From IMG/VR virus record IMGVR_UViG_3300049793_000366, positions 122,865-186,864 of that record: a DNA stretch of 64,000 bases, one strand, 5' to 3'. This DNA comes from a virus. The notes beneath the pieces are model-generated. The model ran no database searches. It was not told the DNA's origin and saw nothing but the letters and a program-made list of their open reading frames with translations. The position numbers were made by a program, and so were the translations under genes. Shown piece by piece: positions 6,536 through 53,250 of the stretch. The stretch's first letter is position 1, and every line of letters begins with the position of its first letter.

Positions 6536-6536
6536 A

Positions 6537-8035: not shown

Positions 8036-8036
8036 T

Positions 8037-9502: not shown

Positions 9503-9523
9503 AGTCGATATATATTTGTTTTA

Positions 9524-11056: not shown

Positions 11057-11110
11057 ACACTTTTATGTATTTTTATAGGGTTATATAACAAAGAAAGTTA
11101 GAAGTTGAAG

Positions 11111-30533: not shown

Positions 30534-30983
30534 ATGAACGTAACAGACGAATTAAAAAAGCTGAATGAAGAATTTGTGCAACAGAAAAAAGAGTTAATGC
30601 TTCGAACAAGAGTTTTATTCGATAAGGCATTAATTGAAGTATTTGATAAGCACGAAGGACTTGAATCATTTGGTTGGACACAGTACACTCCGTATTTCAA
30701 TGATGGTGATGAATGTACTTTCAGCGCACATACAGATTATCTCTACATCAATGGTGTAAACGAAGATGATATGGACGACATCAGTGAGAAAACATATGAC
30801 TACACAAGTGGTAAGAGATTACCGAATGAAAAATATAATAGCGCGAAAGCCGCTATGATTAGTGAAATTAAATCTATCCTTAATACTGTTGATGAGGAAT
30901 TCTTAAAAGAGACGTATAATGACCATGTTAAGGTCACTATTACTCGTGAGGGTTCATCTGTTACGAATTATAGACATGATTAG
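30534..30983 (+). CDS. hypothetical protein
   Basis: 149 aa ORF ending in TAG. Confidence 0.55.
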   Translation: MNVTDELKKLNEEFVQQKKELMLRTRVLFDKALIEVFDKHEGLESFGWTQYTPYFNDGDECTFSAHTDYLYINGVNEDDMDDISEKTYDYTSGKRLPNEKYNSAKAAMISEIKSILNTVDEEFLKETYNDHVKVTITREGSSVTNYRHD

Positions 30984-31046
30984 TGGTGTAACCGAAAAAC
31001 CGAAGAGTAGGAAATTAACAATTAAACAATTTAAAACAAAAACAAA

Positions 31047-32969
31047 ATGCACAGTATCTTAGATTTTATGAGCAATTATTGGTGGATTGGAGCTATTTTA
31101 TTAGCACTGGTTGCCTACAAATTAATTTTCCGTTTATTCGGTATCGTTATGATACCTGAGGATAAAATTGGATTAGTTACAAAGAAGTTTGTTTTACTTG
31201 GCGCGGATAAATCATTACCCGATGGTAGGATTATCGCAACTAAAGGTGAAGCAGGTTTTCAAGCAAAAGCAATGGCACCGGGTATTTATTTCTGGATGTG
31301 GCCATGGCAATATGAAATCGATATGCAAGGTTTCGTATTAATTCCTGAGGGTAAAATTGGTTTAGTGGCTGCGAGAGACGGTGTTGTACCTCAAAATGGT
31401 AGAATACTTGGTCGTAAAGTATCTTGTGATAACTTCCAAGATAGTGAGCAGTTCTTAACTAATGGTGGACAGAAAGGTCGTCAGTCGGCATATCTTGTTG
31501 CTGGTTCTTACCGTATCAATACACACTTATTTGAAGTGTCTGTTGTTGACCAGGTTAAGATTAATGAGAACATGGTGGGTATTGTTACTACTCTTGATGG
31601 TGAGCCTCTTGATGATGGACAAATCGCTGCTAAAGTAAATGAAGCAGGGCATAATAAGTTCCAAAACTTTGATGTGTTTCTTGAGAATGGTGGACAAAGA
31701 GGTTTACAACAAGACGTAATTCTTGCTGGTACTTATAACATCAATCCTTGGGCTGTTCAGATTGAAGAAGTTCCAATGACAAGTATCGCAATTGGATTTG
31801 TTGGTGTTGTTATCTCTTATGTAGGTAGCGAAGGACAAGATGTATCTGGTACTGCTTTCAAACATGGTAACATCGTTAGTAAAGGACAGAAGGGTGTTTG
31901 GAATGAACCATTAGGTCCAGGAAAATATCCTATCAATACATATGCTTATCGCATTGAAGTTGTTCCAACAACAAACCTTGTATTAAACTGGGCAAGCGCG
32001 AGAACTGAATCACACAACTTAGATAAGAACTTAAGTACTATCACAGTACGTTCTAAAGATGGTTTCCCATTCAATTTAGATGTGTCTCAAATTATTCACA
32101 TTCCAATGACAGAAGCACCTAAAGTAATTGCGCGATTTGGTGCTATGCAAAACTTAGTTTCTCAAGTACTTGAGCCAACTATTGGTAACTATTTCCGTAA
32201 CTCTGCTCAAGATTCAGATGTAATCTCTTTCTTAAGCTCTCGTAAAGAGCGTCAGGAGTCTGCTAAACAGCATATCTCTAAAGTTCTTGAAGAGTATAAC
32301 GTTCACGCTGTTGATACGCTTATAGGTGATATTACACCTCCTGAGTCACTTATGAAAACTCTTACTGACCGTAAGATTGCTGAAGAGCAAAAAGTAACAT
32401 ATGAAACTCAGCGTAAAGCACAAATCGAGCGTCAATCTTACGAGAAAGAAAATGCTGTTGCTGATATGCAAAAGGATGTAGTTAAAGCTGACCAGTCAGT
32501 ATTAATTGCTGATAAAACTGCTCAAGCTTCTATTAAGCAAGCAGAAGGTAATGCTAAGTCAGTAGAGCTTAACGCTAATGCTGATGCGAATGCTACTAAA
32601 TTACGTGCTGGTGCCGAAGCAGAAAGAATTACCTTAACTGGTAATGCCGAAGCAGAAAGAACATTAGCGATTGGTAAGTCTAACGCAGAAGCTTATAAAC
32701 TTGCTGTTGAAGCAATGGGTGAAGAAAACTTTACTCGCCTTAAAGTAACAGAAGCTATTGGTATTAATAAAGTACAGGTAATTCCTAACGTACTTATCAA
32801 TGGTGGTGGTAACGGAAGCGGTTCATTAGAAGGTATGATGAGCCTTCAAATGATGGAAATGATGAGCGAAAAGGGTTACTTAAATAAAAAAGACATCAAG
32901 GATGTCAAAGAAGTAACATCTAAAGCTGTTGTTGAAGAGAAAGCAGAAGACGACAAGAAGAAGAAGTAA
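31047..32969 (+). CDS. flotillin-like SPFH/band-7 domain membrane protein
   Basis: N-terminal TM helix WWIGAILLALVAYKLIF. Central SPFH-like region. C-terminal Ala/Glu-rich coiled coil (AEAERITLTGNAEAERTLAIGKSNAEAYKLA) ending in GGGNGSG, as in YqiK/flotillin. Confidence 0.6.
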   Translation: MHSILDFMSNYWWIGAILLALVAYKLIFRLFGIVMIPEDKIGLVTKKFVLLGADKSLPDGRIIATKGEAGFQAKAMAPGIYFWMWPWQYEIDMQGFVLIPEGKIGLVAARDGVVPQNGRILGRKVSCDNFQDSEQFLTNGGQKGRQSAYLVAGSYRINTHLFEVSVVDQVKINENMVGIVTTLDGEPLDDGQIAAKVNEAGHNKFQNFDVFLENGGQRGLQQDVILAGTYNINPWAVQIEEVPMTSIAIGFVGVVISYVGSEGQDVSGTAFKHGNIVSKGQKGVWNEPLGPGKYPINTYAYRIEVVPTTNLVLNWASARTESHNLDKNLSTITVRSKDGFPFNLDVSQIIHIPMTEAPKVIARFGAMQNLVSQVLEPTIGNYFRNSAQDSDVISFLSSRKERQESAKQHISKVLEEYNVHAVDTLIGDITPPESLMKTLTDRKIAEEQKVTYETQRKAQIERQSYEKENAVADMQKDVVKADQSVLIADKTAQASIKQAEGNAKSVELNANADANATKLRAGAEAERITLTGNAEAERTLAIGKSNAEAYKLAVEAMGEENFTRLKVTEAIGINKVQVIPNVLINGGGNGSGSLEGMMSLQMMEMMSEKGYLNKKDIKDVKEVTSKAVVEEKAEDDKKKK

Positions 32970-33458: not shown

Positions 33459-34562
33459 TTATCCCATTGTTAAGAAGATTTTTCTGTTTAATCTATCAAC
33501 AGCAAGTACTTTAACTTGGATGTCTTGACCAGCAGAGAATTGTTTGGTGTTACTGAACTTTTCAACTTCTGATGTGTGAATTAAACCGATTGTCTCTTCG
33601 TCAAGGTTAACAAGAACACCAAATGCTTTGTTATCTTTAACTTTACCTTTGAACTTCTGTCCAACTTTGATACCATCCCAAAGTGATTCTTTTAGAATCT
33701 GGGTAAGAATAATCTTATCCTTGATGATTTCTTTTACGTAGAAGTCAACTGCTGTTCCAGCTTGAATTTGGTCAATTTTATCAGCCCATTCAGGATTGAT
33801 GTTTGATTTGTGAATCATACCAGTTAAACATTCGTTGAATTCGACGAACACACCGAATGGAGTAGTTCCAGTTACGTGTCCTGTGTAAACAGACTCAGCA
33901 TCTAACTTCTTAATCTCTTTTGGTATTAAAGATTGTAAGTATTTTTTGCGAGATACTATATACGTTCCTTTCTCGTCTGAAAAAGACTCCACCATAACGT
34001 TGAATGTTTTACCAACAATAACGCTTGGGTCATGTAGCTTGTTAACACCAGCTAAAGTGTTTGGCATGAATGCCGGGATTGTAACACCGTTGTATAGAAT
34101 ATCTAAATCATATCCAGCTGGGTTAAGTTCTTTAACTTTTGCTTCAACGAAGTCAGTAGATTCTAACGATTGTAACCCTAAGTGAATCGCTTGTTCATAA
34201 ATAGCTGAAATGCTACCTTTAATGAAGAATGGATTTTCTTGTTGGTCTGTTACTAACACGTCAATGTATTGACCATGTTTTAAATTTTGAGTATAAGAAA
34301 GTTCTTTCTTATTTGATTCAACACGAAGATAATCTTTATATCCAATATCGAATACTAAATATTCGTTGGTTGTTTCGATAAACTTTGCGTTGGTAATTTC
34401 ACCAGTCTTCGGCAAAACAAATTTGCCCAATTGGTAGAGCTTTAACATTTGCTCTGCATAAGGTTCAGTACAATAAAGTACATAACCGTCTTTTGTTTTT
34501 CTTGGTTTCTTAGACCACTCAAAAACATCTTTAAATTCTGCGTTTCCGTAGGTTTCTGTCAT
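33459..34562 (-). CDS. multi-S1-domain RNA-binding protein (ribosomal protein S1-like)
   Basis: C-terminal canonical S1 fold signature GKVKDNKAFGVLVNLDEETIGLIHTSEV...VKVLAVDRLNRKIFLT. Further S1-like repeats (GHVTGTTPFGVFVEFNECLTGMIHKS; GKTFNVMVESFSDEKGTYIVSRK). Confidence 0.6.
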   Translation of the reverse strand: MTETYGNAEFKDVFEWSKKPRKTKDGYVLYCTEPYAEQMLKLYQLGKFVLPKTGEITNAKFIETTNEYLVFDIGYKDYLRVESNKKELSYTQNLKHGQYIDVLVTDQQENPFFIKGSISAIYEQAIHLGLQSLESTDFVEAKVKELNPAGYDLDILYNGVTIPAFMPNTLAGVNKLHDPSVIVGKTFNVMVESFSDEKGTYIVSRKKYLQSLIPKEIKKLDAESVYTGHVTGTTPFGVFVEFNECLTGMIHKSNINPEWADKIDQIQAGTAVDFYVKEIIKDKIILTQILKESLWDGIKVGQKFKGKVKDNKAFGVLVNLDEETIGLIHTSEVEKFSNTKQFSAGQDIQVKVLAVDRLNRKIFLTMG

Positions 34563-35744: not shown

Positions 35745-38700
35745 TTATAAACTTTGATTAGTGTTGCTATTTGATTGTGCTATTTGATTGACAACACTTT
35801 TTTGTGTCGGATCAGCTTCATCACATTCTATATAGTATTTATTATCCCATGTGCTTTTGAATATAAAATAGTGTTTGAAGCCATAGCCATATTCATCAAT
35901 CATTGGATAGATAGATTTTAAATCCTTAGCATCCTTTAGTTTAAGTATATTCTTCTTTCTGTTTATTTTTGAGAATTTTCTCTCTTTCATAATACCGAAA
36001 TTAGATAAGCTTGTATCAAATTTGCAATTGTGGTTATCTACCTTATTGAATAGTTCGATATCATAGAATATAGGCATATAATATCCACTGAATCTATATA
36101 GACTCGTAGTTGTTAGATTTTTAAGCCCGTGAATATTATCAACTACTAAATTATCACCTTTGTGTTGGATTATATTTGTAGCTAATGGTATATCATTATA
36201 GTAGTTTAATTCATTAGTAGATTTAACTGTACCTTTGTCTAATAAGAATTTTGCTTTAATTAAATTTTTATTTGGTGATACGGGTTCAACCTTATATGAG
36301 TTCAACTTCGTGGTTACTTGGTCTGGTGCTTCTGCTAATAATATAACAGGTAAATTAGTCCAATTGTATGATTGTGTTGCACCATCGATGTAGTATTTAA
36401 TCGTATCGCTGAATCCATACTTCTCACTCACATTATTCATATAGTTGATGAAGTTATTAGCAGTAAGTTTTGAGAATAATTCATTATATAAATCATCCCT
36501 CTCCTTATTCTTAATAGAAGTATAGGTGTTGTCATTTATGTAGATATGAAGAAGAATTTCCTTATTCTTGTTGTTTATATACATATTGATACCATTCTCT
36601 AATGTTGAGTTAGAAGTAGGTGATGTACAATAGTAATATCTACTATTGAATTTAATAATATTATTATTCGTTATACTATATGGTAGTGTTGTATCATCAA
36701 CCAATGAGTATTCACGAGTCCAAGATGCATTAGTTCCTGGTTCATCAAGATACGAACCAACTAACCTCCATAATATATCATTATGAACAGCGTATTTACC
36801 ATTCAATGCTACAATTGCTGGTGGTGTTATTTTACTCCATAATATTACCTTGTTCCATTTAAGTGTAGATGTCGGTAATGTATTATCTACTCTCCAAGAT
36901 TTAGATGTGAGTGGATAAGAACGGTTTGTCGATTTAAGTGACCTATAATATTCACCATTGAATATAATATATTCATTAGCATTGTAGTTTTGCTTTGGAT
37001 TCCAGAAGCTAACTGTACCAGCACTATATGAATAGTAATCACCGTGGTGATATACTGCGCTATCATAAACCACTGTTGGTGATAATGTATAAGTCTTGGT
37101 TGGATTCCATAATATAGATGTTATACCACTTATAGTTCCCCAAGATACCGTACCATTTGTATATCCAACATCTGTTGTTAATAGTGGTGTGAATAATGAT
37201 TGTGGTCCAACGGTTGTAGTAAGTGTTGAATTATTAAGTGTTGGGCTACCTGGATATACAGACATATTTGTTAGTGTATATGGTGTAGAACCTACGTAGA
37301 CGAATACAATGTCATTAAATATAAACTTCTCACCGAATGTGTATTCTTCTTCTTGATTAAACTGTGAGAATGTTTCCCATGTTAATTCATTCTTTATTGG
37401 AAATACAGACCCAGTTGCCGAATCAGCCATTAGTACGGAGAATTTATATCCTTCGTAATCATTTGTTGATTTAGTTATGATTGAATCAATAGACCCATTT
37501 TTAATAATTAGCTTATCAACATCATATAGATAAAACTTAATACCCTTAAATACTGTGTGATTAGTTATGACTGAATCCTTTGCGTTAAATCTTGAATACT
37601 TTTTAGTATTTCTAATAGTAGAACCACTATCTAATATTTCCTTCTTATCAAATAGAGAAGCGAAATAAGATATCGTACCAGAGTATGTACCTTGATATGC
37701 CCATGTAGCCGCAGTAGCAGCTATTCCAGTGAAGAATAAATCAGGATTAAATGTAAAAGAATCTATGTTTTTATTACTATCTAATATCTGTACGTGTAAA
37801 CTTTGCTCAACATAAGATGTTGTTGATGAATTTATTGTATAGAAATAATCTAAATTATTTTCCATACGTATAGGTCTTGTTTCATATACATTAGCAACCC
37901 TATTAAAGTCATCAGCTATAAATGAATTATTCAAACGATATTCCTCATCAAAATGAGAGTTTGAATGTTGATATCCCCATTTTGTTGACGTGATATTCTT
38001 TCTCCATAGTGAGTTAAGTTCATTATTGTGAACTTCAAATAACTCACCAGTAGCGATGTATTCAGATGATGTTGGTATATGTACTAATTCTTTATTAAAT
38101 ACATACTCACTAAGTCTTTGTGGGTACTCAAGTGAATCTATATCCTTAGAATATAATTTTAATTGTTGTGTATCGGTAAGTGAATCTGATTTTTCATATT
38201 CAAATTTCGAAAAGTTTGTATCAATGATAGATGTTTCAAAATCCTTAATATCAGAAAAGTAAACCTTGTATATTTTAAATACTGGTGGTTGATGGTCTTT
38301 ATCGATAATTAATGGTATAACCGTTTTATAAGCTGGGTCACCCTCGTTTATATAATATTCGAATGTTAATTCAGTAGATTTGAATCCATAATCAGATTGT
38401 ATGTGTAGAGATCCATTACTATCAACTCTTATTACGTGCCATTTATCATCTATCTCAATGACAAATAAATCACAGTTCTTAGCTTCGTTTATAAATTTAT
38501 TATAACTAGCTTGATTATTAACGAAAGTTAGTATGTTGCTTGAATCAACATTTATAATATTAGCATCTATTATACCTTCTAATCCAGATAAATCTAAATC
38601 AGATATAATTCTGTAATTTACAACGTTTAATAGTTGTAATTCATCAGTAGCTAAACCTTTTCTTGACTTAGTTCTTTTGTTTAATCTACGTGTATTTGTG

Positions 38701-39707
38701 AATTTCTCTACCTTATAAAAGATACCATTTATTTCAACATATGTATTCTCTGTCCACCCACCTACGAATGGATCTCCACCCTCTGACTCACTTATTATAT
38801 TACCCGCCGTGATAACTGTACCAGTTACTAATTTCTGAGCTTTATATGGTGACACTGAAAGAAATTCTTCTAATTTTTCAATATAAAATCCGAAGTATCT
38901 GTTTATTGACCATTTTCTTAAAGCCTTTGGTGTAGCTGGTGTATCATTGAATAAGAAACTAAAGTTTACTATATTTGGAAATACAACTTTATTGTTTCTA
39001 TAACCATCTGTGATAAGCGACTCGAATGAATGAAATGTTTGCTCAGTAGATATAGTCTCATCTAAGAAAAAAGACTTAGAACAATATCCACCTGATTCAT
39101 ATTCAATACCATTCCACTTAGAGAATTCTAAAGTTCTCCAATCTATTTCAAATGGTGCTGTTGGAAATGATGCATCGTCAACGAAGTTTCTTTTAATCCA
39201 TTCACCAACATTTGTTTTAGGAGTTAAGTCGAAAACAGTGACACATTTAAACTTATCTAATATCTCTGTCTTGAAATTATCCTTAGTTAAGTTTATAATA
39301 CCAGGACCATCTACTCTGAAAATAATGAAATTTTCCGGAATAGAAGACGGGTCTATATACAAAGGCGCAAAGCATTCAAATTCTTCTTGATAGAATGTAT
39401 CAGAGATATACTTACATCCCATTTGATATATGTCATCAAACTGATGCTCGAACGTGTTAAACATTTTATCGGCATCGTCTTCATATTTAACTTTGAAGGC
39501 AACATCAGCGGGTGTGTTCTTGTAAAAAAACGGAACCAATTCATTAAAGAAGTTATCCTTATTGAATAGTACGTGTTTATATTTAGAAGCACATAGTTCA
39601 GGACTTGATTCAATTGATTCTAAGTATAATGAATAACTTGCTGTTACTATTACTTTAGCATTTGTTGAAAGTGCTGGGTTTGCTCTAATTACCGAAAATG
39701 ATTTCAT
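35745..39707 (-). CDS. giant structural protein (1320 aa), putative tail or baseplate component
   Basis: Very long ORF rich in Asn/Ser/Thr/Tyr, beta-rich. No enzymatic motif recognised. Confidence 0.55.
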   Translation of the reverse strand: MKSFSVIRANPALSTNAKVIVTASYSLYLESIESSPELCASKYKHVLFNKDNFFNELVPFFYKNTPADVAFKVKYEDDADKMFNTFEHQFDDIYQMGCKYISDTFYQEEFECFAPLYIDPSSIPENFIIFRVDGPGIINLTKDNFKTEILDKFKCVTVFDLTPKTNVGEWIKRNFVDDASFPTAPFEIDWRTLEFSKWNGIEYESGGYCSKSFFLDETISTEQTFHSFESLITDGYRNNKVVFPNIVNFSFLFNDTPATPKALRKWSINRYFGFYIEKLEEFLSVSPYKAQKLVTGTVITAGNIISESEGGDPFVGGWTENTYVEINGIFYKVEKFTNTRRLNKRTKSRKGLATDELQLLNVVNYRIISDLDLSGLEGIIDANIINVDSSNILTFVNNQASYNKFINEAKNCDLFVIEIDDKWHVIRVDSNGSLHIQSDYGFKSTELTFEYYINEGDPAYKTVIPLIIDKDHQPPVFKIYKVYFSDIKDFETSIIDTNFSKFEYEKSDSLTDTQQLKLYSKDIDSLEYPQRLSEYVFNKELVHIPTSSEYIATGELFEVHNNELNSLWRKNITSTKWGYQHSNSHFDEEYRLNNSFIADDFNRVANVYETRPIRMENNLDYFYTINSSTTSYVEQSLHVQILDSNKNIDSFTFNPDLFFTGIAATAATWAYQGTYSGTISYFASLFDKKEILDSGSTIRNTKKYSRFNAKDSVITNHTVFKGIKFYLYDVDKLIIKNGSIDSIITKSTNDYEGYKFSVLMADSATGSVFPIKNELTWETFSQFNQEEEYTFGEKFIFNDIVFVYVGSTPYTLTNMSVYPGSPTLNNSTLTTTVGPQSLFTPLLTTDVGYTNGTVSWGTISGITSILWNPTKTYTLSPTVVYDSAVYHHGDYYSYSAGTVSFWNPKQNYNANEYIIFNGEYYRSLKSTNRSYPLTSKSWRVDNTLPTSTLKWNKVILWSKITPPAIVALNGKYAVHNDILWRLVGSYLDEPGTNASWTREYSLVDDTTLPYSITNNNIIKFNSRYYYCTSPTSNSTLENGINMYINNKNKEILLHIYINDNTYTSIKNKERDDLYNELFSKLTANNFINYMNNVSEKYGFSDTIKYYIDGATQSYNWTNLPVILLAEAPDQVTTKLNSYKVEPVSPNKNLIKAKFLLDKGTVKSTNELNYYNDIPLATNIIQHKGDNLVVDNIHGLKNLTTTSLYRFSGYYMPIFYDIELFNKVDNHNCKFDTSLSNFGIMKERKFSKINRKKNILKLKDAKDLKSIYPMIDEYGYGFKHYFIFKSTWDNKYYIECDEADPTQKSVVNQIAQSNSNTNQSL

Positions 39708-39710: not shown

Positions 39711-42700
39711 TTATAATGATATGTTTTGTCCTGTTGGTAGGTTCGAAAGATTCTTTTGAACAGCTACTTTATTTCTACTTAAATTGAACTTAATTGTAAA
39801 CGTGAATGGTCTATTTTCAGCTTCATTTTCTAAGAAGAACTTTAACTTTTTAATATGTTTAACTGTTTGTGTAACGTTATTTAATACGATATACTTGTAG
39901 TTATTACCAGTTCCAGCATTCGGATCCAATGAATTCATCTTGAAATAGATATTGATTGGAATATTGATTGCGTTATTAGGACCACCTGGTACTGTGTGTA
40001 CTTTATCTGAATTAGTTTCAACTAATTTATCTAAGTCTTGAACTACTGGATGAATTGTTGTTAGTAATTTAGTTGTACTTGATACTGACACTGAATTCTC
40101 AACCCATTTACTTGTTTCAAGTAATGATGTATTTGAATTATTAAATGATAGTAAAGTAGTTTCAGAATAACCAATATTATATTCAGTAGATGCTAATGCT
40201 GGTACAATTGAATTGTTAGCATTTGTAGTAAATGCATTTCCAATATTATCAGCCAATTTAGTAACTGTTGATGTATCTTCGATTGTAGAGTAATTAACTG
40301 ACCAAGCAAACTGATTGTTCTTCTGTGTTAATGTTTTACCAGTTGTATTTGAAAACAATAGCTGATTTAATTCATTTACCCAGAAGATTTGAGGAGCCGC
40401 TGTGTTATATAACTCAGTACTTGTATTGTATATTCTACTTGATAATAATCCAAGTGGTGATTCAACTGATTTATTCTCAATCTTTAATAGGAAATCTTTA
40501 ATTACATAAATGTTGTTTTGATAAACACGTCCTGTTGGTACACCAGTATCACTGAATGTATCTAAGTAGTCTTCACACTCAACGTTGAATGTTATTTCAG
40601 AGTTATTCTTGATAACAAATGGTTGGTTATTTCTAAACATAGTTATTACAAGCTCACCCTTAGCACGTTTAATCTTCTCTTCTAAAGCGATTACTCTGTC
40701 TTGAAGAGATTTTAAATATCCGTGTAAGTCAATAGCAGTACCGTTATCATCTTTGAAACCAGATAAAATACTATCAGAACTTGTTACATATGTTTTATTT
40801 CCAACAACAGTGATACCATCTAATATTGTTGATAAACCTCTCGCATCAAGCTCAGATTGCATTCTAACTTTAAGCTCTTCTTGTGTAGCTTCTTTTAAAA
40901 TGAATTGGTCATCAGCCATAACATCATTTAAATCATCTGGGAAATCCAGTGATATGATTTGTGACCAATCAGATTCTACCGGAGATTCTGGCCAACCAAC
41001 TTCTGAAATTGATTTAATTCTTATTTCAACTCTTTCATTTGGTGAAATAGGAATATCTAACTGATTGATATTTGGAGTATCAGCATCAGAAACATCCTCT
41101 ATTGTCCATGAGTATTGTTTAGTTTTAGGATCCTGAATTCTTTTTCTAGCATCCGTTTTAATTTCTTTCCAATTTGAAAAGGCACCAGTTTTAATATTCT
41201 CACCATTTTTTACTGGCTTAAGTTTGAATGTTGTAGTAGTTGGCTCCTTACCATCTTTTGTTGTGTATTTATATTGTATTCTAAACTGAACAATTTCTTG
41301 AGGCTTAGTACCACGAGTTATAATTGCATCAGGAATAGTCCAGAATCCTCTTATGGAGAACTTCGGAGATTGCTTGCCTATACTTGTAGTCTTAGATATA
41401 TCTAATATATCCTTTACTAACGATGATTGTAAAGAAAGCTTTGATTCCTTTTGCTTTTGTAATTTATCTACTTCTAATTCGAATTGTTTTCTTTGTGCAT
41501 CAGATGTGAATCGAGTAACCTTTATTTGCTTATTCTTAGCAATTAATGAATCCGAAATTTGTTGAATTTCAGACTTTAAGTTTTTCTGTTCATTGTGCTT
41601 TGTCTTAATTAGATTACCATTTGGTGTATCTGTTAAGTGTTTATTTATTTGAACTACTTTAAAGTTATCAGCATTTAATGTTGGTGCTGGTGGCGTACCC
41701 GCTAATTGATTTGGTATCTTCTTAGCAACTAAGTCTTTTAATACTTCACCATAGTCATATACATTTTCAGTATAGAATTGTTCCATTGACTTACCATTGT
41801 TTGGGTCTTCTGAATTCAATCTAAGGTCATTAGTCCAATATCCAGTACCAAGACTCCAATCCTTAGCCAATAAGTGATTATCAGCATTTAGTGGCTTAAC
41901 GAAAACCACATTTCTCTCATCATATCCTACTGATATTTTAACGTTTTTATTAAAAACAACAGGTGAATATACTTTAAGCGTACCGATACCTACTGCAATC
42001 GGTTGTAAACCTTCAACTCTTTCAAATCTAACTCTGAAATTAGAAGCAAGTGTTGATACTTCAACCACTTTATATCTTGTTGTAGATATGTCTACATTAA
42101 CGATAACTTCGTCACCGTGTGCTAATTGTCTGATTTCATTTGTACCAGTAACTAAGTAGTCAATAGTATCTAAGTGATACCATAACTTTCTATTAAGTGT
42201 ATCTTGTTCTACTTTTATAACAGTGAATAAACCGTTGTATAATAATTCATTTGGGTCTAAGTCGAAGATTTGCTCATCGTAATTAGGTTCATTTGGACTT
42301 GTGATACCAGGTGTTGTTCTGTGCCAACGGTCAAACTCGTCTATTTTAATAGCAGTCTGCCCTCTGAATAATGTATTGAATGAATTTAAAGCAGATTGTC
42401 CTAAGTTGGTAAGATTACCCGCGTCATCCTTAGCGAATTCAACAATATATCTTCTAACTTGACACTTTCTAACATTATTTTCTATTTTACCATTTAAATC
42501 AATGATTATATTTAGCATTGGGTTTAGTAAACCATCAAAAATCCAGTTTTTGTTGGTAACAAAGGAACTTACTACGTTTAGTGAACCGATAGTAGCAGGC
42601 TCTCGGTTTAAATCAGCAGTAATTATCTTCTTAAATTTATTATTAGCTGGTTGTATAATAGATCCAGCAGAATCGATAGAATATAGGGTATTGATATTGT

Positions 42701-42911
42701 TGTTTAATCTATCAATTTCGGACTTTAAAAATCCAATGGTTGGTAGGTTAAATTGTCTCAAAACGCCATTCTCATCAGTTATTTTTACACTGATTGAGTT
42801 TTCTGTTGTTGTTACTAAATCGTTTAGTTTAGATAGTAATTCTACCGCATTGCGGTTATAACTTATGATTTGTTCTGCTACGGTTGTAAAGGAATTTCTT
42901 ATTGTTGACAT
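39711..42911 (-). CDS. giant structural protein (1066 aa), putative tail or baseplate component
   Basis: Very long ORF with a central coiled-coil segment (QKQKESKLSLQSSLVKD). No enzymatic motif recognised. Confidence 0.55.
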   Translation of the reverse strand: MSTIRNSFTTVAEQIISYNRNAVELLSKLNDLVTTTENSISVKITDENGVLRQFNLPTIGFLKSEIDRLNNNINTLYSIDSAGSIIQPANNKFKKIITADLNREPATIGSLNVVSSFVTNKNWIFDGLLNPMLNIIIDLNGKIENNVRKCQVRRYIVEFAKDDAGNLTNLGQSALNSFNTLFRGQTAIKIDEFDRWHRTTPGITSPNEPNYDEQIFDLDPNELLYNGLFTVIKVEQDTLNRKLWYHLDTIDYLVTGTNEIRQLAHGDEVIVNVDISTTRYKVVEVSTLASNFRVRFERVEGLQPIAVGIGTLKVYSPVVFNKNVKISVGYDERNVVFVKPLNADNHLLAKDWSLGTGYWTNDLRLNSEDPNNGKSMEQFYTENVYDYGEVLKDLVAKKIPNQLAGTPPAPTLNADNFKVVQINKHLTDTPNGNLIKTKHNEQKNLKSEIQQISDSLIAKNKQIKVTRFTSDAQRKQFELEVDKLQKQKESKLSLQSSLVKDILDISKTTSIGKQSPKFSIRGFWTIPDAIITRGTKPQEIVQFRIQYKYTTKDGKEPTTTTFKLKPVKNGENIKTGAFSNWKEIKTDARKRIQDPKTKQYSWTIEDVSDADTPNINQLDIPISPNERVEIRIKSISEVGWPESPVESDWSQIISLDFPDDLNDVMADDQFILKEATQEELKVRMQSELDARGLSTILDGITVVGNKTYVTSSDSILSGFKDDNGTAIDLHGYLKSLQDRVIALEEKIKRAKGELVITMFRNNQPFVIKNNSEITFNVECEDYLDTFSDTGVPTGRVYQNNIYVIKDFLLKIENKSVESPLGLLSSRIYNTSTELYNTAAPQIFWVNELNQLLFSNTTGKTLTQKNNQFAWSVNYSTIEDTSTVTKLADNIGNAFTTNANNSIVPALASTEYNIGYSETTLLSFNNSNTSLLETSKWVENSVSVSSTTKLLTTIHPVVQDLDKLVETNSDKVHTVPGGPNNAINIPINIYFKMNSLDPNAGTGNNYKYIVLNNVTQTVKHIKKLKFFLENEAENRPFTFTIKFNLSRNKVAVQKNLSNLPTGQNISL

Positions 42912-43024
42912 TTCTTCCTGCTAATTTTTTATTATATATAAAAAAAATATGGTTATGTACCATAGTTGGAATCGCTATTTGTGTGGATTTCGCCATTTGG
43001 ATTTTTTTGCTTATATTTGTAATT

Positions 43025-43342
43025 ATGGACAAATCTTGGTCATTAAAGAATAAGCGTGATATTGAAAATTTATTCAGTAAGGGTAAATCATATACATCTG
43101 GTTGCATTGTAGCCAGATATGTGGACTCGACTGAAACTAAGTTTCTATTCGCTGTTAGTACCCGTCTGTATAAGCGCGCCAATAAGAGAAATAGAGTTAA
43201 GAGGTTGATGCGTGTTGCTGTTGCTGAGATAAAGAATACGGTAGTCAACAAACACGTTGCTTTTATCTATATAGATACTGATATTAAATCATTAAGTGAT
43301 ATAAAAAATAGCATAGCTGGTCTTAAATGTCTGAACCCTTAG
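43025..43342 (+). CDS. rnpA: ribonuclease P protein component (RnpA)
   Basis: RNR motif region VSTRLYKRANKRNRVKRLMRVAV (A-x-x-RNR-h-KR). N-terminal SLKNKRDIENLFSKGKS is colinear with Bacteroidetes RnpA. About 105 aa from the internal Met; the 5' extension of the track ORF (42902) overlaps the upstream gene. Ends in TAG. Confidence 0.7.
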   Translation: MDKSWSLKNKRDIENLFSKGKSYTSGCIVARYVDSTETKFLFAVSTRLYKRANKRNRVKRLMRVAVAEIKNTVVNKHVAFIYIDTDIKSLSDIKNSIAGLKCLNP

Positions 43343-43650
43343 AGCGGATTAAATATGATATATTGTCGGATATGCTGATTGATATGCTGTCCATCGAAGA
43401 GTCATTTTATACCAAACATAAAGATAAACCATCGGTTAATTATGAGATAGTTAAACAATCTTGTAGGTTCAATATTGATGATAATGGAAAGAAGTCATTT
43501 GTTACATCCCTTAGTTCGTTGTATAAACACACTAAAAACTATGGGGCTAAACTACATAATCGAGGATTATATCATTTAAATGAAGAAGAGATAGAAATTG
43601 ATATTGATAAAAGAATAAATAGAGCTTACAATCTCAATAGATTATTATGA
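43327..43650 (+). CDS. hypothetical protein
   Basis: 107 aa ORF. Confidence 0.5.
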   Translation: MSEPLERIKYDILSDMLIDMLSIEESFYTKHKDKPSVNYEIVKQSCRFNIDDNGKKSFVTSLSSLYKHTKNYGAKLHNRGLYHLNEEEIEIDIDKRINRAYNLNRLL

Positions 43651-44893: not shown

Positions 44894-45184
44894 GTGGTTC
44901 AATCAGCACATTCAATTGCCGATTTCGCGGCTGAATTTCCACAAATTTTCTCCCAGTGGAAGATGGAGTCAAACTCTATCATTTGTCTTTCTGTGAAAGA
45001 TGAACAAGAATTACTAAAACTGTACGATAAGTTAAGAACGCAAGGTGTCTCTGTGGTCAAATTTTTTGAACCCGATATTGACGCTGATACTTCTATTTGC
45101 CTATATGGCACCCCAGAAGTTAGAAAGAAATTATCTAGCCTTCCATTGTCTTTGCGTACAAAAGAATCAGTATTAACAAACTAA
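44894..45184 (+). CDS. PTH2-family peptidyl-tRNA hydrolase (minimal GTG-started ORF; homology extends upstream)
   Basis: VQSAHSIADFA...SIICLSVKDEQELLKLYDKLRTQGVSVVKFFEPDID is colinear with the PTH2 core. The in-frame upstream codons KLVTVTRADIAPGY also match the PTH2 N-terminus, but contain no ATG/GTG/TTG. ATG-AAG-TAG lies at 44819-44827. Confidence 0.55.
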   Translation: MVQSAHSIADFAAEFPQIFSQWKMESNSIICLSVKDEQELLKLYDKLRTQGVSVVKFFEPDIDADTSICLYGTPEVRKKLSSLPLSLRTKESVLTN

Positions 45185-48282: not shown

Positions 48283-49482
48283 ATGATAATTCAGTCACTT
48301 CTCGATTTAGACTATTACAAACTAACAATGGGTCAATTAGCTTTCTTAAGCTTCCCTGATGTTGAAATTGAAGCCGCCTTTAAAAACAGAAAATCAAATA
48401 TTCGATTAGCGGATATTATCCCGGTTGACCGATTGATATCCGAACTCAATCATGTTAGAACTCTGGTTCTTAGTAAAGAACAGTTAAAGTTCGTTGAAAA
48501 ACAGGGCATATTTAAGCCAGAATACCGAGAGTATCTATATCAGATAAACCGTAGCAATCCTCTATCCGAAGTACGAGTAGAGGTTGTTGATGGTCAATTT
48601 GATGTGAGAACAAAGGGTAAATGGCCTAATGCCATTTTGTGGGAAACAATAGTATTAGCTGTTATTAACGAGCTATATTATGAGTATAAATACCCAAATC
48701 TCTCTTATGATGAGGGTCTTACTAGACTTGCGAATAAGATTAAAATTCTTAAAAAGCATCCACAAATTAAATTCTCTGACTTCGGTACTCGAAGAAGAGC
48801 ATCAAGAACATGGCAAGCACTTGTTGTTAATAAATTAAGACAAGCATTACCTAATCAGTTTCTTGGAACATCGAATGTTCAGTTGGCTATGGATTATAAC
48901 ATAACTCCAATTGGAACATTCGCACATGAAATGCCAATGGTTGCTTCTGGTGTTTGGTATGATACTGATGTTGAATTAAAAGCATCACATGGTAGAGTAC
49001 TTGATATGTGGTATGAGTTATATGATGTTAAATTATCAATTGCTCTTACTGATACATTTGGAACCAAATTCTTCTTTGAAGACTTCGTAGACCGCGCACC
49101 AGTTTGGAATGGTTTACGACACGATTCTGGTGATCCATTTGAATTTGGTCATAAAGTATTAGCTTACTACGCATCACTGGGTATTGATTCTAAAACAAAA
49201 ACTATTGTGTTTAGTGATGGTTTGGATTTAGATATCATCATCCGACTCGAAGCAATATTTGGTAAATTAATTAAATGCGTTTTCGGTTGGGGTACGACTC
49301 TGACAAATGACATTGGGTATGAAACATTATCTATTGTTATGAAAGCCATCCGTGCTAATGGTAATGAATTGGTTAAGCTTTCTGATAACTTAAATAAAGC
49401 TACTGGTTCCGATGCTACTAAATCTCGATACATTAGTGTATTTGGGTATGACAATCAAAAGCGTGAAGAGTGTGTAGTCTAA
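48283..49482 (+). CDS. pncB: nicotinate phosphoribosyltransferase
   Basis: Colinear with E. coli PncB: SLLDLDYYKLTM, FGTRRRAS, GLRHDSGDPFEFG, IVFSDGLDLD, VKLSDN. Confidence 0.85.
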   Translation: MIIQSLLDLDYYKLTMGQLAFLSFPDVEIEAAFKNRKSNIRLADIIPVDRLISELNHVRTLVLSKEQLKFVEKQGIFKPEYREYLYQINRSNPLSEVRVEVVDGQFDVRTKGKWPNAILWETIVLAVINELYYEYKYPNLSYDEGLTRLANKIKILKKHPQIKFSDFGTRRRASRTWQALVVNKLRQALPNQFLGTSNVQLAMDYNITPIGTFAHEMPMVASGVWYDTDVELKASHGRVLDMWYELYDVKLSIALTDTFGTKFFFEDFVDRAPVWNGLRHDSGDPFEFGHKVLAYYASLGIDSKTKTIVFSDGLDLDIIIRLEAIFGKLIKCVFGWGTTLTNDIGYETLSIVMKAIRANGNELVKLSDNLNKATGSDATKSRYISVFGYDNQKREECVV

Positions 49483-49508
49483 TAAGTAAAACCTAAAAAC
49501 AAAAACAC

Positions 49509-49808
49509 ATGGAATATAACGGTCAAACAAAAAAGGAATACGAGAAAAACTTCACACGTATTCGTGATATTATCACTAAGGCTGATGGTGATAAGGAAAA
49601 AGCTCTTCGACTTGCTAAAACACAAGCAGACAGAATAGAAGATGAATATAAAGCAATCAATCGTTCAAATGCCGCAGTAAAGCTTGGACATGAGTGGTTA
49701 GCTGACCCTTTCTTCGAAAGAGCTTATGAGCTTGGTGCTGTGGGTAAAATGGAGTACCGCGAATACAAGCTTAAGAAATTATTTGAAATGCAAGAAGAAG
49801 GAGCCTAA
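49509..49808 (+). CDS. hypothetical protein
   Basis: 99 aa ORF. Confidence 0.5.
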   Translation: MEYNGQTKKEYEKNFTRIRDIITKADGDKEKALRLAKTQADRIEDEYKAINRSNAAVKLGHEWLADPFFERAYELGAVGKMEYREYKLKKLFEMQEEGA

Positions 49809-50011
49809 TGAGACAGCAGATTCTTAAATACTTACCTATTAAAATTGCAATATTATTCTCTTTTATTACTGTGCCTCTTATCGCAGCAATATTCGTTAAT
49901 AGTGTTGTAATTTCTTACTTAATTGGTGCTATTTTTTTCGGTTTGCTACTGTTAGTTTACTATATAGTGAAGGGAAGGAAATCTCACCCAGAATTAAAAA
50001 ATAAAATTTGA
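49808..50011 (+). CDS. small membrane protein
   Basis: Two hydrophobic helices in 67 aa. Confidence 0.45.
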   Translation: MRQQILKYLPIKIAILFSFITVPLIAAIFVNSVVISYLIGAIFFGLLLLVYYIVKGRKSHPELKNKI

Positions 50012-50012
50012 A

Positions 50013-50270
50013 ATGAAAGAAGTAAGAATTCTATTAACGGAAGAAACATTCACACTTTTGTGTAAGCAGGGCTATGTTGCATATAAGAATAATATGTTTA
50101 GCGTATCTCAGATAAACATCACAAAAGCCGACTTGGAGAAGTTGATAAGCGGTGATATCATCGATAAACCACAGGATGGTGTTGACTTTAAAATTGCGTT
50201 AATGGATATCGGTTATGATAGGATTTTACCAATAATTAAACGTTCACCATTCTATGGTAATTCTATATAA
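50013..50270 (+). CDS. hypothetical protein
   Basis: 85 aa ORF. Confidence 0.45.
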   Translation: MKEVRILLTEETFTLLCKQGYVAYKNNMFSVSQINITKADLEKLISGDIIDKPQDGVDFKIALMDIGYDRILPIIKRSPFYGNSI

Positions 50271-50535
50271 AAATTTAGTATTTTGTTCAAGTATATATGG
50301 TACTAAACTGACTGGTAGAAAGGATGTGAAATTTTTAGAAGTACATTATGGTAGCGATAAAGATTTTATTGAAAAGTATCAGAAAATTTACCCAAATCAT
50401 CGAAAGGGAATATTCTTAGATGCTAGAAAACCTGTACCGAGAGATTTCAGACTCGATGTTGAACATATGATTAAGTCAGACCCACTGTTAATTCAAACAA
50501 TTCGTGATTTAAAGCTTGAAGAGTTATGTCAATAG
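50254..50535 (+). CDS. hypothetical protein
   Basis: 93 aa ORF ending in TAG. Confidence 0.45.
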   Translation: MVILYKNLVFCSSIYGTKLTGRKDVKFLEVHYGSDKDFIEKYQKIYPNHRKGIFLDARKPVPRDFRLDVEHMIKSDPLLIQTIRDLKLEELCQ

Positions 50536-50906
50536 AAGAGAAAATATTCATATATGGGTTTATGTTTATTATGCTTGGTGTTCTATACTTCATCGGATTT
50601 TTTATACGTGACTATAAACAAAAGTATCTACGTAATAAAAGAATGCAGAGGTTGAATTGGAATAAGGTATTGAAAATATTCGCGTGTGTTACTGGATTTT
50701 GTTTACTTGGTTCTATCAACAATAAAATGTTTACTTGGTATGAAGCTCCGATAATGGGATTTACTATCACTGCTGTGATTTTGTTTGCTGGTATATTTAG
50801 ACCAGAGAATGATACAAATGAGTATAAACAATTCGATAATCCTGAGTTTAAGGTATATGAGAAAGCACATCAGAGAGATAGAAAAATTAAAGATATTTTA
50901 AAATGA
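50526..50906 (+). CDS. hypothetical membrane protein
   Basis: Three hydrophobic helices in 126 aa. Confidence 0.5.
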   Translation: MSIEEKIFIYGFMFIMLGVLYFIGFFIRDYKQKYLRNKRMQRLNWNKVLKIFACVTGFCLLGSINNKMFTWYEAPIMGFTITAVILFAGIFRPENDTNEYKQFDNPEFKVYEKAHQRDRKIKDILK

Positions 50907-51457
50907 AGGTAGGATTATTCTTTGGGTCATTTAACCCAATACACTTAGGTCACTTAGAGATTGCTGAGAAATCAGCTAAATATGTAGATGAAGTTTGGTT
51001 CATTGTTTCACCTCACAATCCATTTAAGGATCCGAGTATGTTGATAAACCAAACTTCTCGATTAGAAATGGTTAAGTTAGCCGTTGAGTCTACACCGCAT
51101 TATAAAGTTAGTGATGTTGAATTTAATTTACCAACACCTACGAGAACTCATGTTACTTTAGAAAAATTAATCGAAGAACACGAGCATGAATTTTTATTGA
51201 TATTTGGTTCTGATTGTGTGAATACATTACACACATGGGAAAGAGGTGATTGGATTTTAGAAACATTTCCTATCATCGCATTTAAGAGAGAATCTGAGGA
51301 TGTAAATCCTGAAATTTATAAAAAGTTAATATCAGAAACTCATATATCATCTACGATAATACGAAATAATATTATAAATGGTTTGCCGGTTGATAGTCTT
51401 CTACCAACTTTAGTTGAGCAATACATATATAATAATGGATTATGGTCACACAAGTAA
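50903..51457 (+). CDS. nadD: nicotinate/nicotinamide mononucleotide adenylyltransferase
   Basis: GSFNPIHLGHL (HxGH nucleotidyltransferase motif) and C-terminal ISSTIIR motif. Confidence 0.8.
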   Translation: MKVGLFFGSFNPIHLGHLEIAEKSAKYVDEVWFIVSPHNPFKDPSMLINQTSRLEMVKLAVESTPHYKVSDVEFNLPTPTRTHVTLEKLIEEHEHEFLLIFGSDCVNTLHTWERGDWILETFPIIAFKRESEDVNPEIYKKLISETHISSTIIRNNIINGLPVDSLLPTLVEQYIYNNGLWSHK

Positions 51458-51711
51458 ATAAAGTACTACACTTTGATAATTCGAGAATAGAACTATCGCA
51501 AACTGGTCTTTGTTTTACTGCCTTTTTCTACACGAATGATAGCGAGAAACCTTGTTTTCATTTTAAATTTTATTCGGATGGAAAGTCGATAATTGAGGAT
51601 TTTAAGAAGGAAGCTCGTAACTATATGTCAACCAGTATATTGACTGATTTTATCAACAAAAACCCTGATGTATTACGGACAATTAATTTTGATAATTTAA
51701 TTGTTAATTGA
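51442..51711 (+). CDS. hypothetical protein
   Basis: 89 aa ORF. Confidence 0.45.
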   Translation: MVTQVNKVLHFDNSRIELSQTGLCFTAFFYTNDSEKPCFHFKFYSDGKSIIEDFKKEARNYMSTSILTDFINKNPDVLRTINFDNLIVN

Positions 51712-51730
51712 GAAAAAGTTTGTATATTTG
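51701..51730 (+). promoter_or_regulatory. Bacteroidetes-type promoter (TTG -33 element, 19-nt spacer, TATATTTG -7 element)
   Basis: TTG at 51701-03 and TATATTTG at 51723-30, about 35 nt upstream of the pncA start. Confidence 0.4.
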
Positions 51731-51765
51731 TAATTGATTAATGGACACTAAAAACCAAAACATAT

Positions 51766-52383
51766 ATGTTTAAATTAAAACCAAATACTCGTTCATTGTT
51801 CTGGAATGTTGACACTCAAGTTGACTTCATGAATTCAGAAGGTAAGTTATACGTTACTGACGCAGAACAAATCAAAGACACTTTAGCAAAAATAACCAAG
51901 TTCGCTAAAGACAACAATGTTCAGGTTGTTAATACTGCTGATTGGCATTATGCTGATTCTGCTGAGTTATCCGAAACACCTGATTTTATAAATACCTTCC
52001 CACCACACTGTATGGCTAATACGCCTGGTGCTGAGTTGATACCGGAAACAAAACCAGAAAAGTATGATTCTATCATTGATTGGAAAAATCCAAAATGTGA
52101 TATTAAAACTGACTCTACAAACTTTTTAGTCTTGAAAGATAAGTTTGATGTCTTCACTGGAAATCAGTTCACTAAAAGATTAATTGATGCTTTAAACCCA
52201 GATGTTGTTTACGTCTATGGTGTAGCTACAAATGTCTGTGTTGACTGTGCTGTTAACGGTTTACTTGATAACGGTTATAAAGTGGTTGTGTTTGAAGATG
52301 CTATTAAAGAGCTTCCAAATATACCATCACCAATACAAAATTGGATAGACAAAGGAGCAGAAATTATTAAATTCACAAACTAA
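51766..52383 (+). CDS. pncA: nicotinamidase (isochorismatase family)
   Basis: Isochorismatase-fold layout: N-terminal D..Q.DF, conserved Lys region (VLKDKFDVF), catalytic Cys in GVATNVCVDCAV. Confidence 0.75.
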   Translation: MFKLKPNTRSLFWNVDTQVDFMNSEGKLYVTDAEQIKDTLAKITKFAKDNNVQVVNTADWHYADSAELSETPDFINTFPPHCMANTPGAELIPETKPEKYDSIIDWKNPKCDIKTDSTNFLVLKDKFDVFTGNQFTKRLIDALNPDVVYVYGVATNVCVDCAVNGLLDNGYKVVVFEDAIKELPNIPSPIQNWIDKGAEIIKFTN

Positions 52384-52395
52384 AATATAAATACT

Positions 52396-53250
52396 ATGAA
52401 TACGAAAAAAGTATCAAATCACATCACCAATTGGTTAAAAGATTTTGCATTAAATACTAAACAAAACGGTTACGTTATCGGAGTATCTGGTGGAATTGAC
52501 TCCGCAGTTGTTTCGACACTATGCGCCCGTACTGGATTACCACTTATTGTTGTGAGTATGCCTATTCATCAAGAAGCTAATCAAGTTTCTCGCGCACAAG
52601 AGCATATGGATTGGTTGAAAAAAAATTATCCAAATGTAACACAGTTTGAATTTGACTTAACATCAGTTTATGATTCATTCGTAACTAAGTTAGATGGTAA
52701 AACACATTTTATTTCAAAGCCTGAGCATGATACACAGGTTGCTGATAAAATGTTCTTAACACTTGCGAATACTCGCTCTCGTTTGAGAATGACAACACTT
52801 TATTCACTTGCCGGATTAAACAATATGCTTGTTGCTGGTACTGGTAATAAAGTAGAAGACTTTGGTGTAGGATTCTTCACTAAGTATGGTGATGGTGGAA
52901 TTGATGTATCACCAATCGGTGAGTTGATGAAATCTGAGGTATACATATTGGGTGCTGAATTAGGTATAAACCAAGCAATACTTTCAGCAAGACCTACTGA
53001 TGGTCTTTGGGATGATGGTAGAACAGATGAAGACCAAATTGGTGCTACTTATGATGAACTTGAGTGGGCTATGGGTGTTCAAGAAGAATTGGGAAATAAT
53101 CCTGAGACTTTATACGAAATGAACGAAAGACAAACGATAGTGTGGAATATTTATTTGTCTCGACACACCGCTAACTCACATAAAATGCAAATGCCACCAG
53201 TTTGCTCATTAAAAGGAATTAAATATGATGAAGAAGTTGTTGCACAGTAA
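52396..53250 (+). CDS. nadE: NH3-dependent NAD+ synthetase
   Basis: PP-loop GVSGGIDSAV and GFFTKYGDGGIDVSPIG, colinear with E. coli NadE. Confidence 0.85.
   Translation: MNTKKVSNHITNWLKDFALNTKQNGYVIGVSGGIDSAVVSTLCARTGLPLIVVSMPIHQEANQVSRAQEHMDWLKKNYPNVTQFEFDLTSVYDSFVTKLDGKTHFISKPEHDTQVADKMFLTLANTRSRLRMTTLYSLAGLNNMLVAGTGNKVEDFGVGFFTKYGDGGIDVSPIGELMKSEVYILGAELGINQAILSARPTDGLWDDGRTDEDQIGATYDELEWAMGVQEELGNNPETLYEMNERQTIVWNIYLSRHTANSHKMQMPPVCSLKGIKYDEEVVAQ

Follow-up and report, generated by a model that had tools for sequence, protein, structure and literature searches.

RNase P is a universal and essential ribozyme, and the gene described here, carried by the genome of a huge phage, most likely encodes a working RnpA that has adapted to the phage; RnpA is the protein cofactor of the bacterial enzyme. 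It lies in a stretch of 64,000 nt (the window) from the IMG/VR virus record IMGVR_UViG_3300049793_000366, covering positions 122,865 to 186,864 of that record. Within the window the rnpA coding sequence runs from ATG to TAG at 43025..43342 on the plus strand and specifies a short RNase P protein subunit of 105 aa belonging to a phage lineage. We put at roughly 60% the probability that this protein loads onto the RNase P RNA of the host, sustaining or raising the capacity for processing phage tRNA arrays.

The original prediction, made from the sequence without database searches, had called this open reading frame (ORF) an RnpA and named Pfam PF00825 as the check. The match to PF00825 scored 51.9 bits (cut-off 22.3; E 9.1e-14) and covered residues 1-90 of the protein and positions 1-92 of the 109 in the profile. 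The same profile also matched all 11 aligned relatives. A single-sequence phmmer search of the PDB retrieved RNase P proteins only, weakly (best E 0.008), and a scan of the protein against PHROGs gave no significant family. The call was borne out by the profile and also by the RNR motif and the predicted fold.

The RNR motif helix, KRANKRNRVKRLMR, was found at residues 50-63 (43172..43213, plus strand), within a predicted helix spanning residues 52-67, and the earlier view that the RnpA signature is intact was correct. The full pattern A-x-x-R-N-R-x-K-R-x-x-R is present on this helix, alpha2, which in bacterial RnpA forms the RNase P RNA-binding surface. In an alignment of 11 sequences, R51, A52, R55, N56, K59, R60 and R63 were invariant, and R57 was kept in all sequences except MT838814.1, which comes from a bacterial context. 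The RNR residues align to R60, N61, R62, K64, R65 and R68 of B. subtilis RnpA. The N-terminal helix region, LKNKRDIENLFSKGKS (residues 7-22; 43043..43090, plus strand), aligns with Bacteroidota RnpAs, for example with LKSKKNIDKLFSDGKS, and includes the conserved F17; both F17 and I13 are nearly invariant in the same alignment. The N-terminal Bacteroidetes pattern noticed earlier was therefore recovered, and the RNR region follows Bacteroidota RnpAs too.

An AlphaFold2 model was built on an alignment of eight relatives and reached a mean predicted local distance difference test score (pLDDT) of 78.5 and a predicted template modelling score (pTM) of 0.71. The model contains helices at residues 10-19, 52-67 and 90-103 and strands at 21-25, 28-34, 39-44 and 76-82, giving a predicted alpha-beta-beta-beta-alpha-beta-alpha topology that is RnpA-like. 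When the model was compared with the PDB using Foldseek, the top 16 matches were all bacterial RNase P proteins, from S. aureus, T. maritima, B. subtilis and E. coli. Their template modelling (TM) scores were 0.72-0.77, except for the E. coli nuclear magnetic resonance model 2LJP (0.64), and the predicted model deviated from the best crystal structures by a root-mean-square distance of ~2.1-2.6 Å. The protein is small and strongly basic, with an isoelectric point (pI) of 10.1 and 22 lysine and arginine residues versus 9 aspartate and glutamate residues. Collectively, the sequence matches and the modelled structure indicate that the ORF is a real RnpA homologue, its resemblance to the family being far above chance.

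The ORF list for this region also contains two overlapping frames. One is a hydrophobic, TTG-started, in-frame 5' extension at 42902..43024 on the plus strand (146 aa for the whole version, 42902-43342), and the other is an antisense ORF of 131 aa at 42856..43251 on the minus strand that came from the mechanical ORF list. The original prediction had regarded both as spurious, and the selection on the coding sequence, the upstream motif and the gene callers all agree that they are artefacts. Relatives from independent assemblies with 83% and 78% protein identity differ from the window gene mainly at the third codon positions of the plus frame (47 nucleotide differences, versus 14 and 10 at the other two positions), and the ratio of non-synonymous to synonymous substitution rates (dN/dS) of the rnpA frame was 0.06-0.15 against relatives of 78-83% identity. 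This indicates that the plus frame of rnpA evolves under purifying selection. The antisense open stretch varies in length between relatives, from 85 to 140 codons. That the antisense ORF is the real gene, part of what the original prediction had said would refute it, was rejected because selection is carried by the sense frame and the antisense length is variable. The 5' extension was rejected as part of the gene since translation from the ATG already gives a protein that PF00825 matches from residue 1 onwards, the promoter motif falls within the extension, and gene callers choose the ATG; the same ATG is used by those behind the Logan, ENA and NCBI relatives.

The sequence immediately upstream of the gene points in the same direction. 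TAnnTTTG is the -7 promoter consensus of Bacteroidota, and a match to it, TATATTTG, is located at 43012..43019 on the plus strand, ending 5 nt before the ATG. Of 13 homologous loci, 11 have a TAnnTTTG whose last base is 4-7 nt from the start codon, and a twelfth has a one-base variant. Within the window the motif occurs in the 40 nt upstream of 5 of 87 ORFs, and its background frequency is 2.2% per 40-nt stretch. The position of the motif supports both the ATG start and a Bacteroidota host, and from it we infer a dedicated rnpA promoter and a leaderless or near-leaderless mRNA. The promoter claim is restricted to the -7 element; a canonical -33 TTTG at 19-21 nt from it was not evident by eye upstream of rnpA. 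A scan for Sigma-70 promoters found no enrichment (11 sites versus 15 expected); the consensus used is in any event unsuited to Bacteroidota. The four other ORFs of at least 80 aa with an upstream TAnnTTTG are located at 24247 and 28528 on the plus strand and at 3649 and 62685 on the minus strand. Two of them have the motif 4 nt from the ATG, an arrangement like that of rnpA, and these may be further starts of leaderless transcription units.

The gene had been proposed to reside in a phage genome, and this was upheld by PHROG matches in the window and by the number of ORFs in common with a curated phage genome. The PHROG matches include a baseplate wedge subunit, a head decoration protein and virion structural proteins; no capsid or terminase match was seen among the window ORFs scanned, by a scan that was not aimed at these two. 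Genes of the kind that huge phages usually carry are present as well: a MetRS-like catalytic domain, an NAPRTase with further NAD-salvage genes, an S1-domain protein and a PTH2-like ORF. In total, 53 window ORFs have homologues in LR756502.1 (25-72% identity), several of them in syntenic blocks. LR756502.1 is one of the 634-642-kb Mahaphage genomes, a clade predicted to infect Bacteroidetes (PMC7162821). An identical RnpA protein is encoded on a 711,805-bp JGI contig, where it is automatically named 'ribonuclease P protein component', and a protein of 59% identity is encoded on the 709,085-bp NCBI contig JAWVHH010000009.1, with the same position and gene order. On the latter contig rnpA lies between a 1064-aa gene and NAD-salvage genes. 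These matches indicate that the source of the window is a Mahaphage-type megaphage of ~0.7 Mb.

Relatives of the protein were sought in several collections. A tblastn search of 50,697 phage records found matches only in the Mahaphages LR756502.1 (47% identity) and LR745206.1 (45%) and in one unverified fragment. A megablast of 8 kb around rnpA against the phage records had no match; the relatives emerged at the protein level only. IMG/VR contained relatives on six further viral contigs, three of them 242-483 kb long, and no RnpA-like fold was found in the viral structure library BFVD. A HMMER search of 1.84 billion cluster representatives gave 195 matches at E<=0.001; the best ~20 of these 195 are almost all 95-106 aa long, and several are carried by contigs 125-709 kb in length. 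A rough neighbour-joining tree groups the window protein with the viral sequences in a clade of 45 members, mostly of 95-106 aa, which holds none of the 39 identified Bacteroidota RnpAs and none of the references. Some 40 clusters of short RnpAs (95-106 aa) make up a separate lineage, and those whose context is known come from huge or viral contigs. Among cellular sequences, the nearest relatives found, at ~30-40% identity, are overwhelmingly from Bacteroidota (Flavobacteriales, Chitinophagaceae and Ferruginibacter); they come from a scan of one-genome-per-species GTDB contigs that was seeded with RNR-type peptide patterns and is hence somewhat biased.

The length of the protein had been described as right for the family at ~105 aa. 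It is in fact short, since the median length of 39 RnpAs from Bacteroidota is 129 aa, versus 95-106 aa in the phage lineage. The phage proteins are shorter at both termini and in two loops, beta2-beta3 and alpha2-beta4, making four segments in all. Together, the tree and the lengths indicate that the phage RnpAs are a distinct, trimmed lineage. The likeliest history is that rnpA was captured from a Bacteroidota host lineage, subsequently lost the four peripheral segments and was then inherited within the huge-phage lineage.

The possibility that the gene is a mis-assembled or mis-binned piece of bacterial DNA, or a decaying passenger gene, was considered alongside these searches, and we regard it as effectively refuted. 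It draws what support it has from the other RnpA matches in the phage collection, which are UNVERIFIED records with a bacterial rpmH-rnpA-yidD context. That contaminant set was found by searching the phage records with a Bacteroidota RnpA and B. subtilis RnpA, and its members (among them records filed under Campylobacter, Listeria, Staphylococcus or Enterococcus phages or under 'Bacteriophage sp.') were treated as bacterial DNA. All five inspected records are labelled UNVERIFIED or UNVERIFIED_ORG, and four of the five have rpmH and/or yidD beside rnpA; the records with rnpA in this bacterial context are MG065691.1, OR846603.1, MT836169.1 and MT838814.1. The stretch from 'Campylobacter phage A11a' has a G+C content (GC) of 53%. 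Two further RnpA matches in the collection are Salmonella chromosome contigs. Besides the two Mahaphages, no RnpA match free of signs of bacterial contamination was found among the 50,697 phage records. Against an artefact in the present case, rnpA occupies the same position in independent JGI, Logan, ENA and NCBI assemblies, its flanking genes are common to the curated phage genome LR756502.1, and it is under strong purifying selection. Its GC is also phage-like (34.9%, versus 32.6% for the window). It does not have rpmH or yidD as neighbours: no L34 or YidD signature was found at -3 to +4 kb in the window and at six phage loci, and the same check did find rpmH/YidD signatures in the contaminated 'phage' records.

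We then turn to the RNA partner of the protein. The statement in the original prediction that no RNase P RNA is visible in the window was confirmed with Rfam, since no Rfam model matched at gathering thresholds and none of the RNase P families did even at E<=5. At eight related loci, the 10 kb on either side of rnpA also had none. LR756502.1 was scanned over its full 642,428 bp, at gathering thresholds, with the complete set of Rfam models; this yielded ~45 tRNAs, one GOLLD RNA and one DUF805b motif, and RNase P RNA was detected in none of its classes. A regular-expression search of the window and LR756502.1 for the paired conserved regions CR-I and CR-V gave only loose chance pairs (2+3 mismatches), and the scan recovers an E. 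coli control. A scan of LR756502.1 for GC-rich islands returned only ORF-internal regions, tRNA clusters and one tandem-repeat island. This last island, at 640.2 kb, was rejected as an RNA gene, being a tandem repeat of CTGCCCACCAT; about nine copies lie near the end of the record (piece L022, 46296-46390; ~640.3 kb). Elsewhere, a different, 536-kb megaphage scanned with all Rfam models had tRNAs and a tmRNA only (PMC8172020). To judge from these scans, RNase P RNA is apparently missing from the phage lineage.

The relative LR756502.1 does carry many potential substrates. ARAGORN found 46 tRNA genes for 18 amino acids in this genome, nearly all on one strand and in a few clusters. The spacers between them are <=20 nt in 22 of 44 cases, with many of just 1-14 nt. 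The tRNAs have no encoded CCA, and the bases after the discriminator are A-rich. On the 15.7-kb contig IMGVR_UViG_3300031601_003550, an rnpA homologue at 9019-9309 is situated inside a same-strand array of 16-17 tRNAs (6287-14739) and has its own TATATTTG element. LR756502.1 also encodes a full-length GOLLD RNA (275 bits) at 434685-435174 (piece L018, 38685-39173), and 9 nt beyond it begins a tRNA-like gene whose anticodon loop is odd; this GOLLD-tRNA junction would be set by RNase P cleavage. Two nucleotidyltransferase-like genes flank the rnpA homologue of LR756502.1 (piece L001, 6826-7485 and 9822-10460). One has a weak match to the PolyA_pol head domain (E 0.006, below threshold) and the other has Polbeta/NTP_transf_2 matches. 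We do not claim a CCA-adding enzyme upstream of this rnpA, the PolyA_pol head match being sub-threshold, and the flanking genes could be relevant given that the phage tRNAs are without CCA.

In the mechanism that we favour, the megaphage would infect a member of the Bacteroidota, and rnpA would have a Bacteroidota-type promoter to itself and open a transcription unit that runs rightward. The phage RnpA would assemble through its intact RNR helix with the type-A RNase P RNA of the host, which is proposed as the partner because the phage lineage appears to have no RNase P RNA of its own. The holoenzyme pool would thereby be raised or sustained during infection, while the host is being taken over. 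The main predicted clients would be the phage's own tRNA transcripts, which in the relative number dozens and form tight arrays. Such arrays would have to be separated by RNase P, and it is there that the grip of the protein subunit on the 5' leader would matter most. LR756502.1 has rnpA, 46 tRNAs and no detectable RNase P RNA; pairing with the host RNA is therefore the most economical arrangement. Several published results bear on this scheme. All heterologous bacterial RnpAs that were tried complemented the loss of rnpA in E. coli (PMC3308948), and overexpression of rnpA raises the steady-state level of the holoenzyme (PMC11251521). What makes RNase P essential to E. coli is the separation of polycistronic tRNA transcripts (PMC7049720), and the closely spaced, CCA-less tRNA precursors of phage T4 are RNase P substrates (PMC11143913).

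Several observations weigh against this reading. The NCBIfam equivalog TIGR00188 scored 38.0 bits, 0.35 bits short of its cut-off of 38.35, which might reflect a trimmed and divergent family member. In B. subtilis RnpA, F16, F20 and Y34 are the aromatic residues of the central cleft that contact the 5' leader of pre-tRNA. In the alignment, F17 of the phage protein falls at F20, I13 at F16 and R31 at Y34, so that Ile stands at the F16 position and Arg/Lys at the Y34 position. Y32 adjoins R31, and most relatives have Y or W there; Bacteroidota RnpAs show the same cleft pattern, with Ile and an aromatic residue one position later. With respect to the clients, ARAGORN found no tRNA gene in the 64-kb window, the rnpA of LR756502.1 lies ~90 kb from the main tRNA region of that genome, and the positional link to tRNAs comes from one contig. 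With respect to the RNA, its absence is drawn from the 64-kb window and from LR756502.1, whose RnpA is only 47% identical, and the Rfam gathering thresholds could miss a very divergent RNase P RNA.

That last point bears on the idea that the phage has an RNase P RNA of its own, too divergent or too reduced for the Rfam models, and hence a complete viral RNase P. We consider this very improbable. It is true that the relative genome was scanned by Rfam at gathering thresholds only, that the window covers 64 kb of the source genome, and that CPR (candidate phyla radiation) bacteria have divergent RNase P RNAs missed by standard models (PMC8172020). Nonetheless, the relaxed search of the window at E<=5 was also negative for RNase P families, neither the window nor LR756502.1 had a convincing CR-I/CR-V pair in a scan that recovered its control, the non-coding GC-rich islands of LR756502.1 were all tRNA clusters or the tandem repeat, and none of the eight rnpA-flanking loci had such an RNA. 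The lack of a cognate RNA in the phage lineage could also be read in favour of a function independent of RNase P, with the protein acting as an RNA-binding protein or chaperone or as an mRNA-turnover factor. Such an mRNA-turnover role has reportedly been proposed for S. aureus RnpA, and the best Foldseek match is an S. aureus RnpA entry whose title refers to mRNA-degradation activity; the predicted fold is also that of a small, very basic RNA-binding protein. We nevertheless judge this use improbable, since the invariant residues coincide with the RNR set, through which RNase P RNA is contacted, and the RNR surface is kept across ~37-83% identity, which argues for selection for interaction with RNase P RNA.

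It is harder to separate simple supply from a takeover, in which the phage RnpA would displace the host RnpA on the host RNase P RNA and shift substrate preference. Such a shift could favour phage pre-tRNAs, tRNA-punctuated transcripts or GOLLD-tRNA junctions, or it could starve host tRNA maturation. The 5'-leader preferences of RNase P are set by its protein subunit, and the phage proteins are a distinct lineage in which four peripheral segments are trimmed relative to Bacteroidota RnpAs. The surroundings of the RNR motif have diverged in the subclade of the window (KRANKRNRV, versus KRAVDRNRI in Bacteroidota), and RNase P would define the junction between the GOLLD RNA of LR756502.1 and the tRNA-like gene 9 nt on. 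On the other side, no specificity-altering feature was identified, the leader-cleft pattern is like that of Bacteroidota RnpAs, and phages often trim the loops of genes copied from hosts, which does not have to alter function. On present data, takeover and simple supply are indistinguishable, and we hold takeover to be doubtful. Put in its boldest form, as a virus-host chimeric ribozyme in which phage RnpA replaces the host protein and retunes the choice of RNAs during infection, the idea is a tentative one. The targets of such an enzyme could be CCA-less tRNA arrays, tRNA-punctuated transcripts and GOLLD-tRNA junctions; in a variant of the same proposal, phage RnpA would partner with an unrecognised phage-encoded catalytic RNA.

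Supply of RnpA to the host RNA, the reading that we favour, can be set beside known systems. With Bacteroidota RnpAs the phage protein has in common the family profile, the predicted fold, the RNR motif, a pI of ~10 and the N-terminal pattern LKxKKxIDxLFxxGK, and the exact string FKRAVDRNRIKRLMRE is common to them and to some phage members. It differs from them in having at most ~40% identity, in forming a separate clade in the rough neighbour-joining tree, and in being encoded outside the rpmH-rnpA-yidD-yidC context by a virus without detectable rnpB. The RnpAs of known structure (B. subtilis 1A6F, T. maritima 1NZ0 and its holoenzyme 3Q1Q, S. aureus 6D1R and E. coli C5 7UO0) have the same topology as is predicted here, at only 13-28% sequence identity. 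To our knowledge, T4 relies wholly on host RNase P, whereas the megaphage supplies the RNase P protein subunit itself. The T4 tRNA cluster gives dimeric and multimeric precursors with short spacers and no CCA (PMC11143913), and the LR756502.1 arrays have the same layout. Theta (hepatitis delta virus-like) ribozymes located beside the tRNAs of gut phages (PMC10879173) are likewise phage-borne elements tied to tRNA maturation; they are described there as self-cleaving RNAs beside a tRNA, whereas phage RnpA would be a trans-acting cofactor for 5' processing by the host ribozyme.

The translation gene sets reported for huge phages (PMC7162821) come from the same kind of genome, and 53 window ORFs are common with the 642-kb Mahaphage of that study. 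The window also carries MetRS-like and PTH2-like genes, which fits the theme of copies of host machinery. Phage RnpA differs from those sets in being one subunit of a ribonucleoprotein, the RNA of which is apparently left to the host. The main text of PMC7162821 does not mention RNase P, rnpA or ribonuclease P, and of its 257 supplementary files the first 200, some of them incomplete, contained one match, to the unrelated 'Ribonuclease PH'. Full-text searches of the literature found no description of a phage-encoded RNase P protein. The protein is a clear member of an established family met in a new setting, and automatic annotation already names it. We found no described virus-encoded RNase P subunit, PHROGs has no family for it and BFVD has no such fold. 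If the favoured reading is true, megaphages would reinforce the first step of tRNA maturation, beyond importing tRNAs and tRNA synthetases, and would do so with a mixed enzyme of viral protein and host catalytic RNA. This would provide a testable system for the interchangeability of RNase P subunits and for whether the protein subunit limits tRNA supply in infection. The naturally minimised RnpA (95-106 aa) would also mark the dispensable parts of the protein.

The gene had been described as following two giant structural genes. Both giant genes, of 1320 aa (35745-39707) and 1066 aa (39711-42911), are on the minus strand in the ORF map and diverge from rnpA. A 113-nt, AT-rich intergenic region (42912..43024) separates the leftward 1066-aa gene from the rightward rnpA. 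A structural role for the giant genes was not confirmed, as the sole match is that of one of them to a PHROG without an assigned function; the other has no PHROG, and neither has a Pfam or PDB sequence match. Downstream, the ORF map places a 107-aa ORF at 43327..43650 on the plus strand, for which there is no Pfam match, and an ORF of similar size is called in the same place in close relatives. Because the first 16 nt of this ORF overlap rnpA and nothing resembling a terminator was found between the two, rnpA probably heads a multi-gene transcript that includes it. A conserved partner gene beside rnpA was rejected, as the downstream ORF differs between two phage subclades.

Other genes related to translation and RNA are found farther away. 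A PTH2-like ORF of 96 aa with a GTG start is located at 44894-45184 on the plus strand and scored 29.6 bits (cut-off 23), without approximately the first 23 profile positions. It is uncalled in the Logan, ENA and NCBI relatives and is conserved in LR756502.1 (58% over 53 aa), and either a small gene that callers overlooked or a remnant is possible. At 5239-6504 on the plus strand is a class-I, Met-type aminoacyl-tRNA synthetase of 421 aa that consists of the catalytic domain only and is well below the size of a full methionyl-tRNA synthetase (MetRS). An S1 RNA-binding protein of 367 aa (33459-34562, minus strand) has a C-terminal S1 domain (78.5 bits) and is kept in LR756502.1 and the 709-kb relative. 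A DUF805b-like RNA motif at 30983-31013 on the plus strand scored 27.4 bits, below the gathering score of 35.6, and lies directly upstream of an SPFH/Band-7 gene (31047-32969). In LR756502.1, DUF805b reaches the gathering score (piece L016, 46751-46785), again upstream of the homologous SPFH/Band-7 gene.

Finally, the window contains a block for NAD+ salvage and synthesis at 48283-53250. It comprises a nicotinate phosphoribosyltransferase (NAPRTase; 48283-49482), a cytidylyltransferase resembling nicotinamide mononucleotide adenylyltransferase (NMNAT-like; 50903-51457), an isochorismatase/nicotinamidase-like gene (51766-52383) and an NAD synthase (52396-53250). The order of this block is kept in close relatives, with a Macro-domain gene after the NAPRTase.

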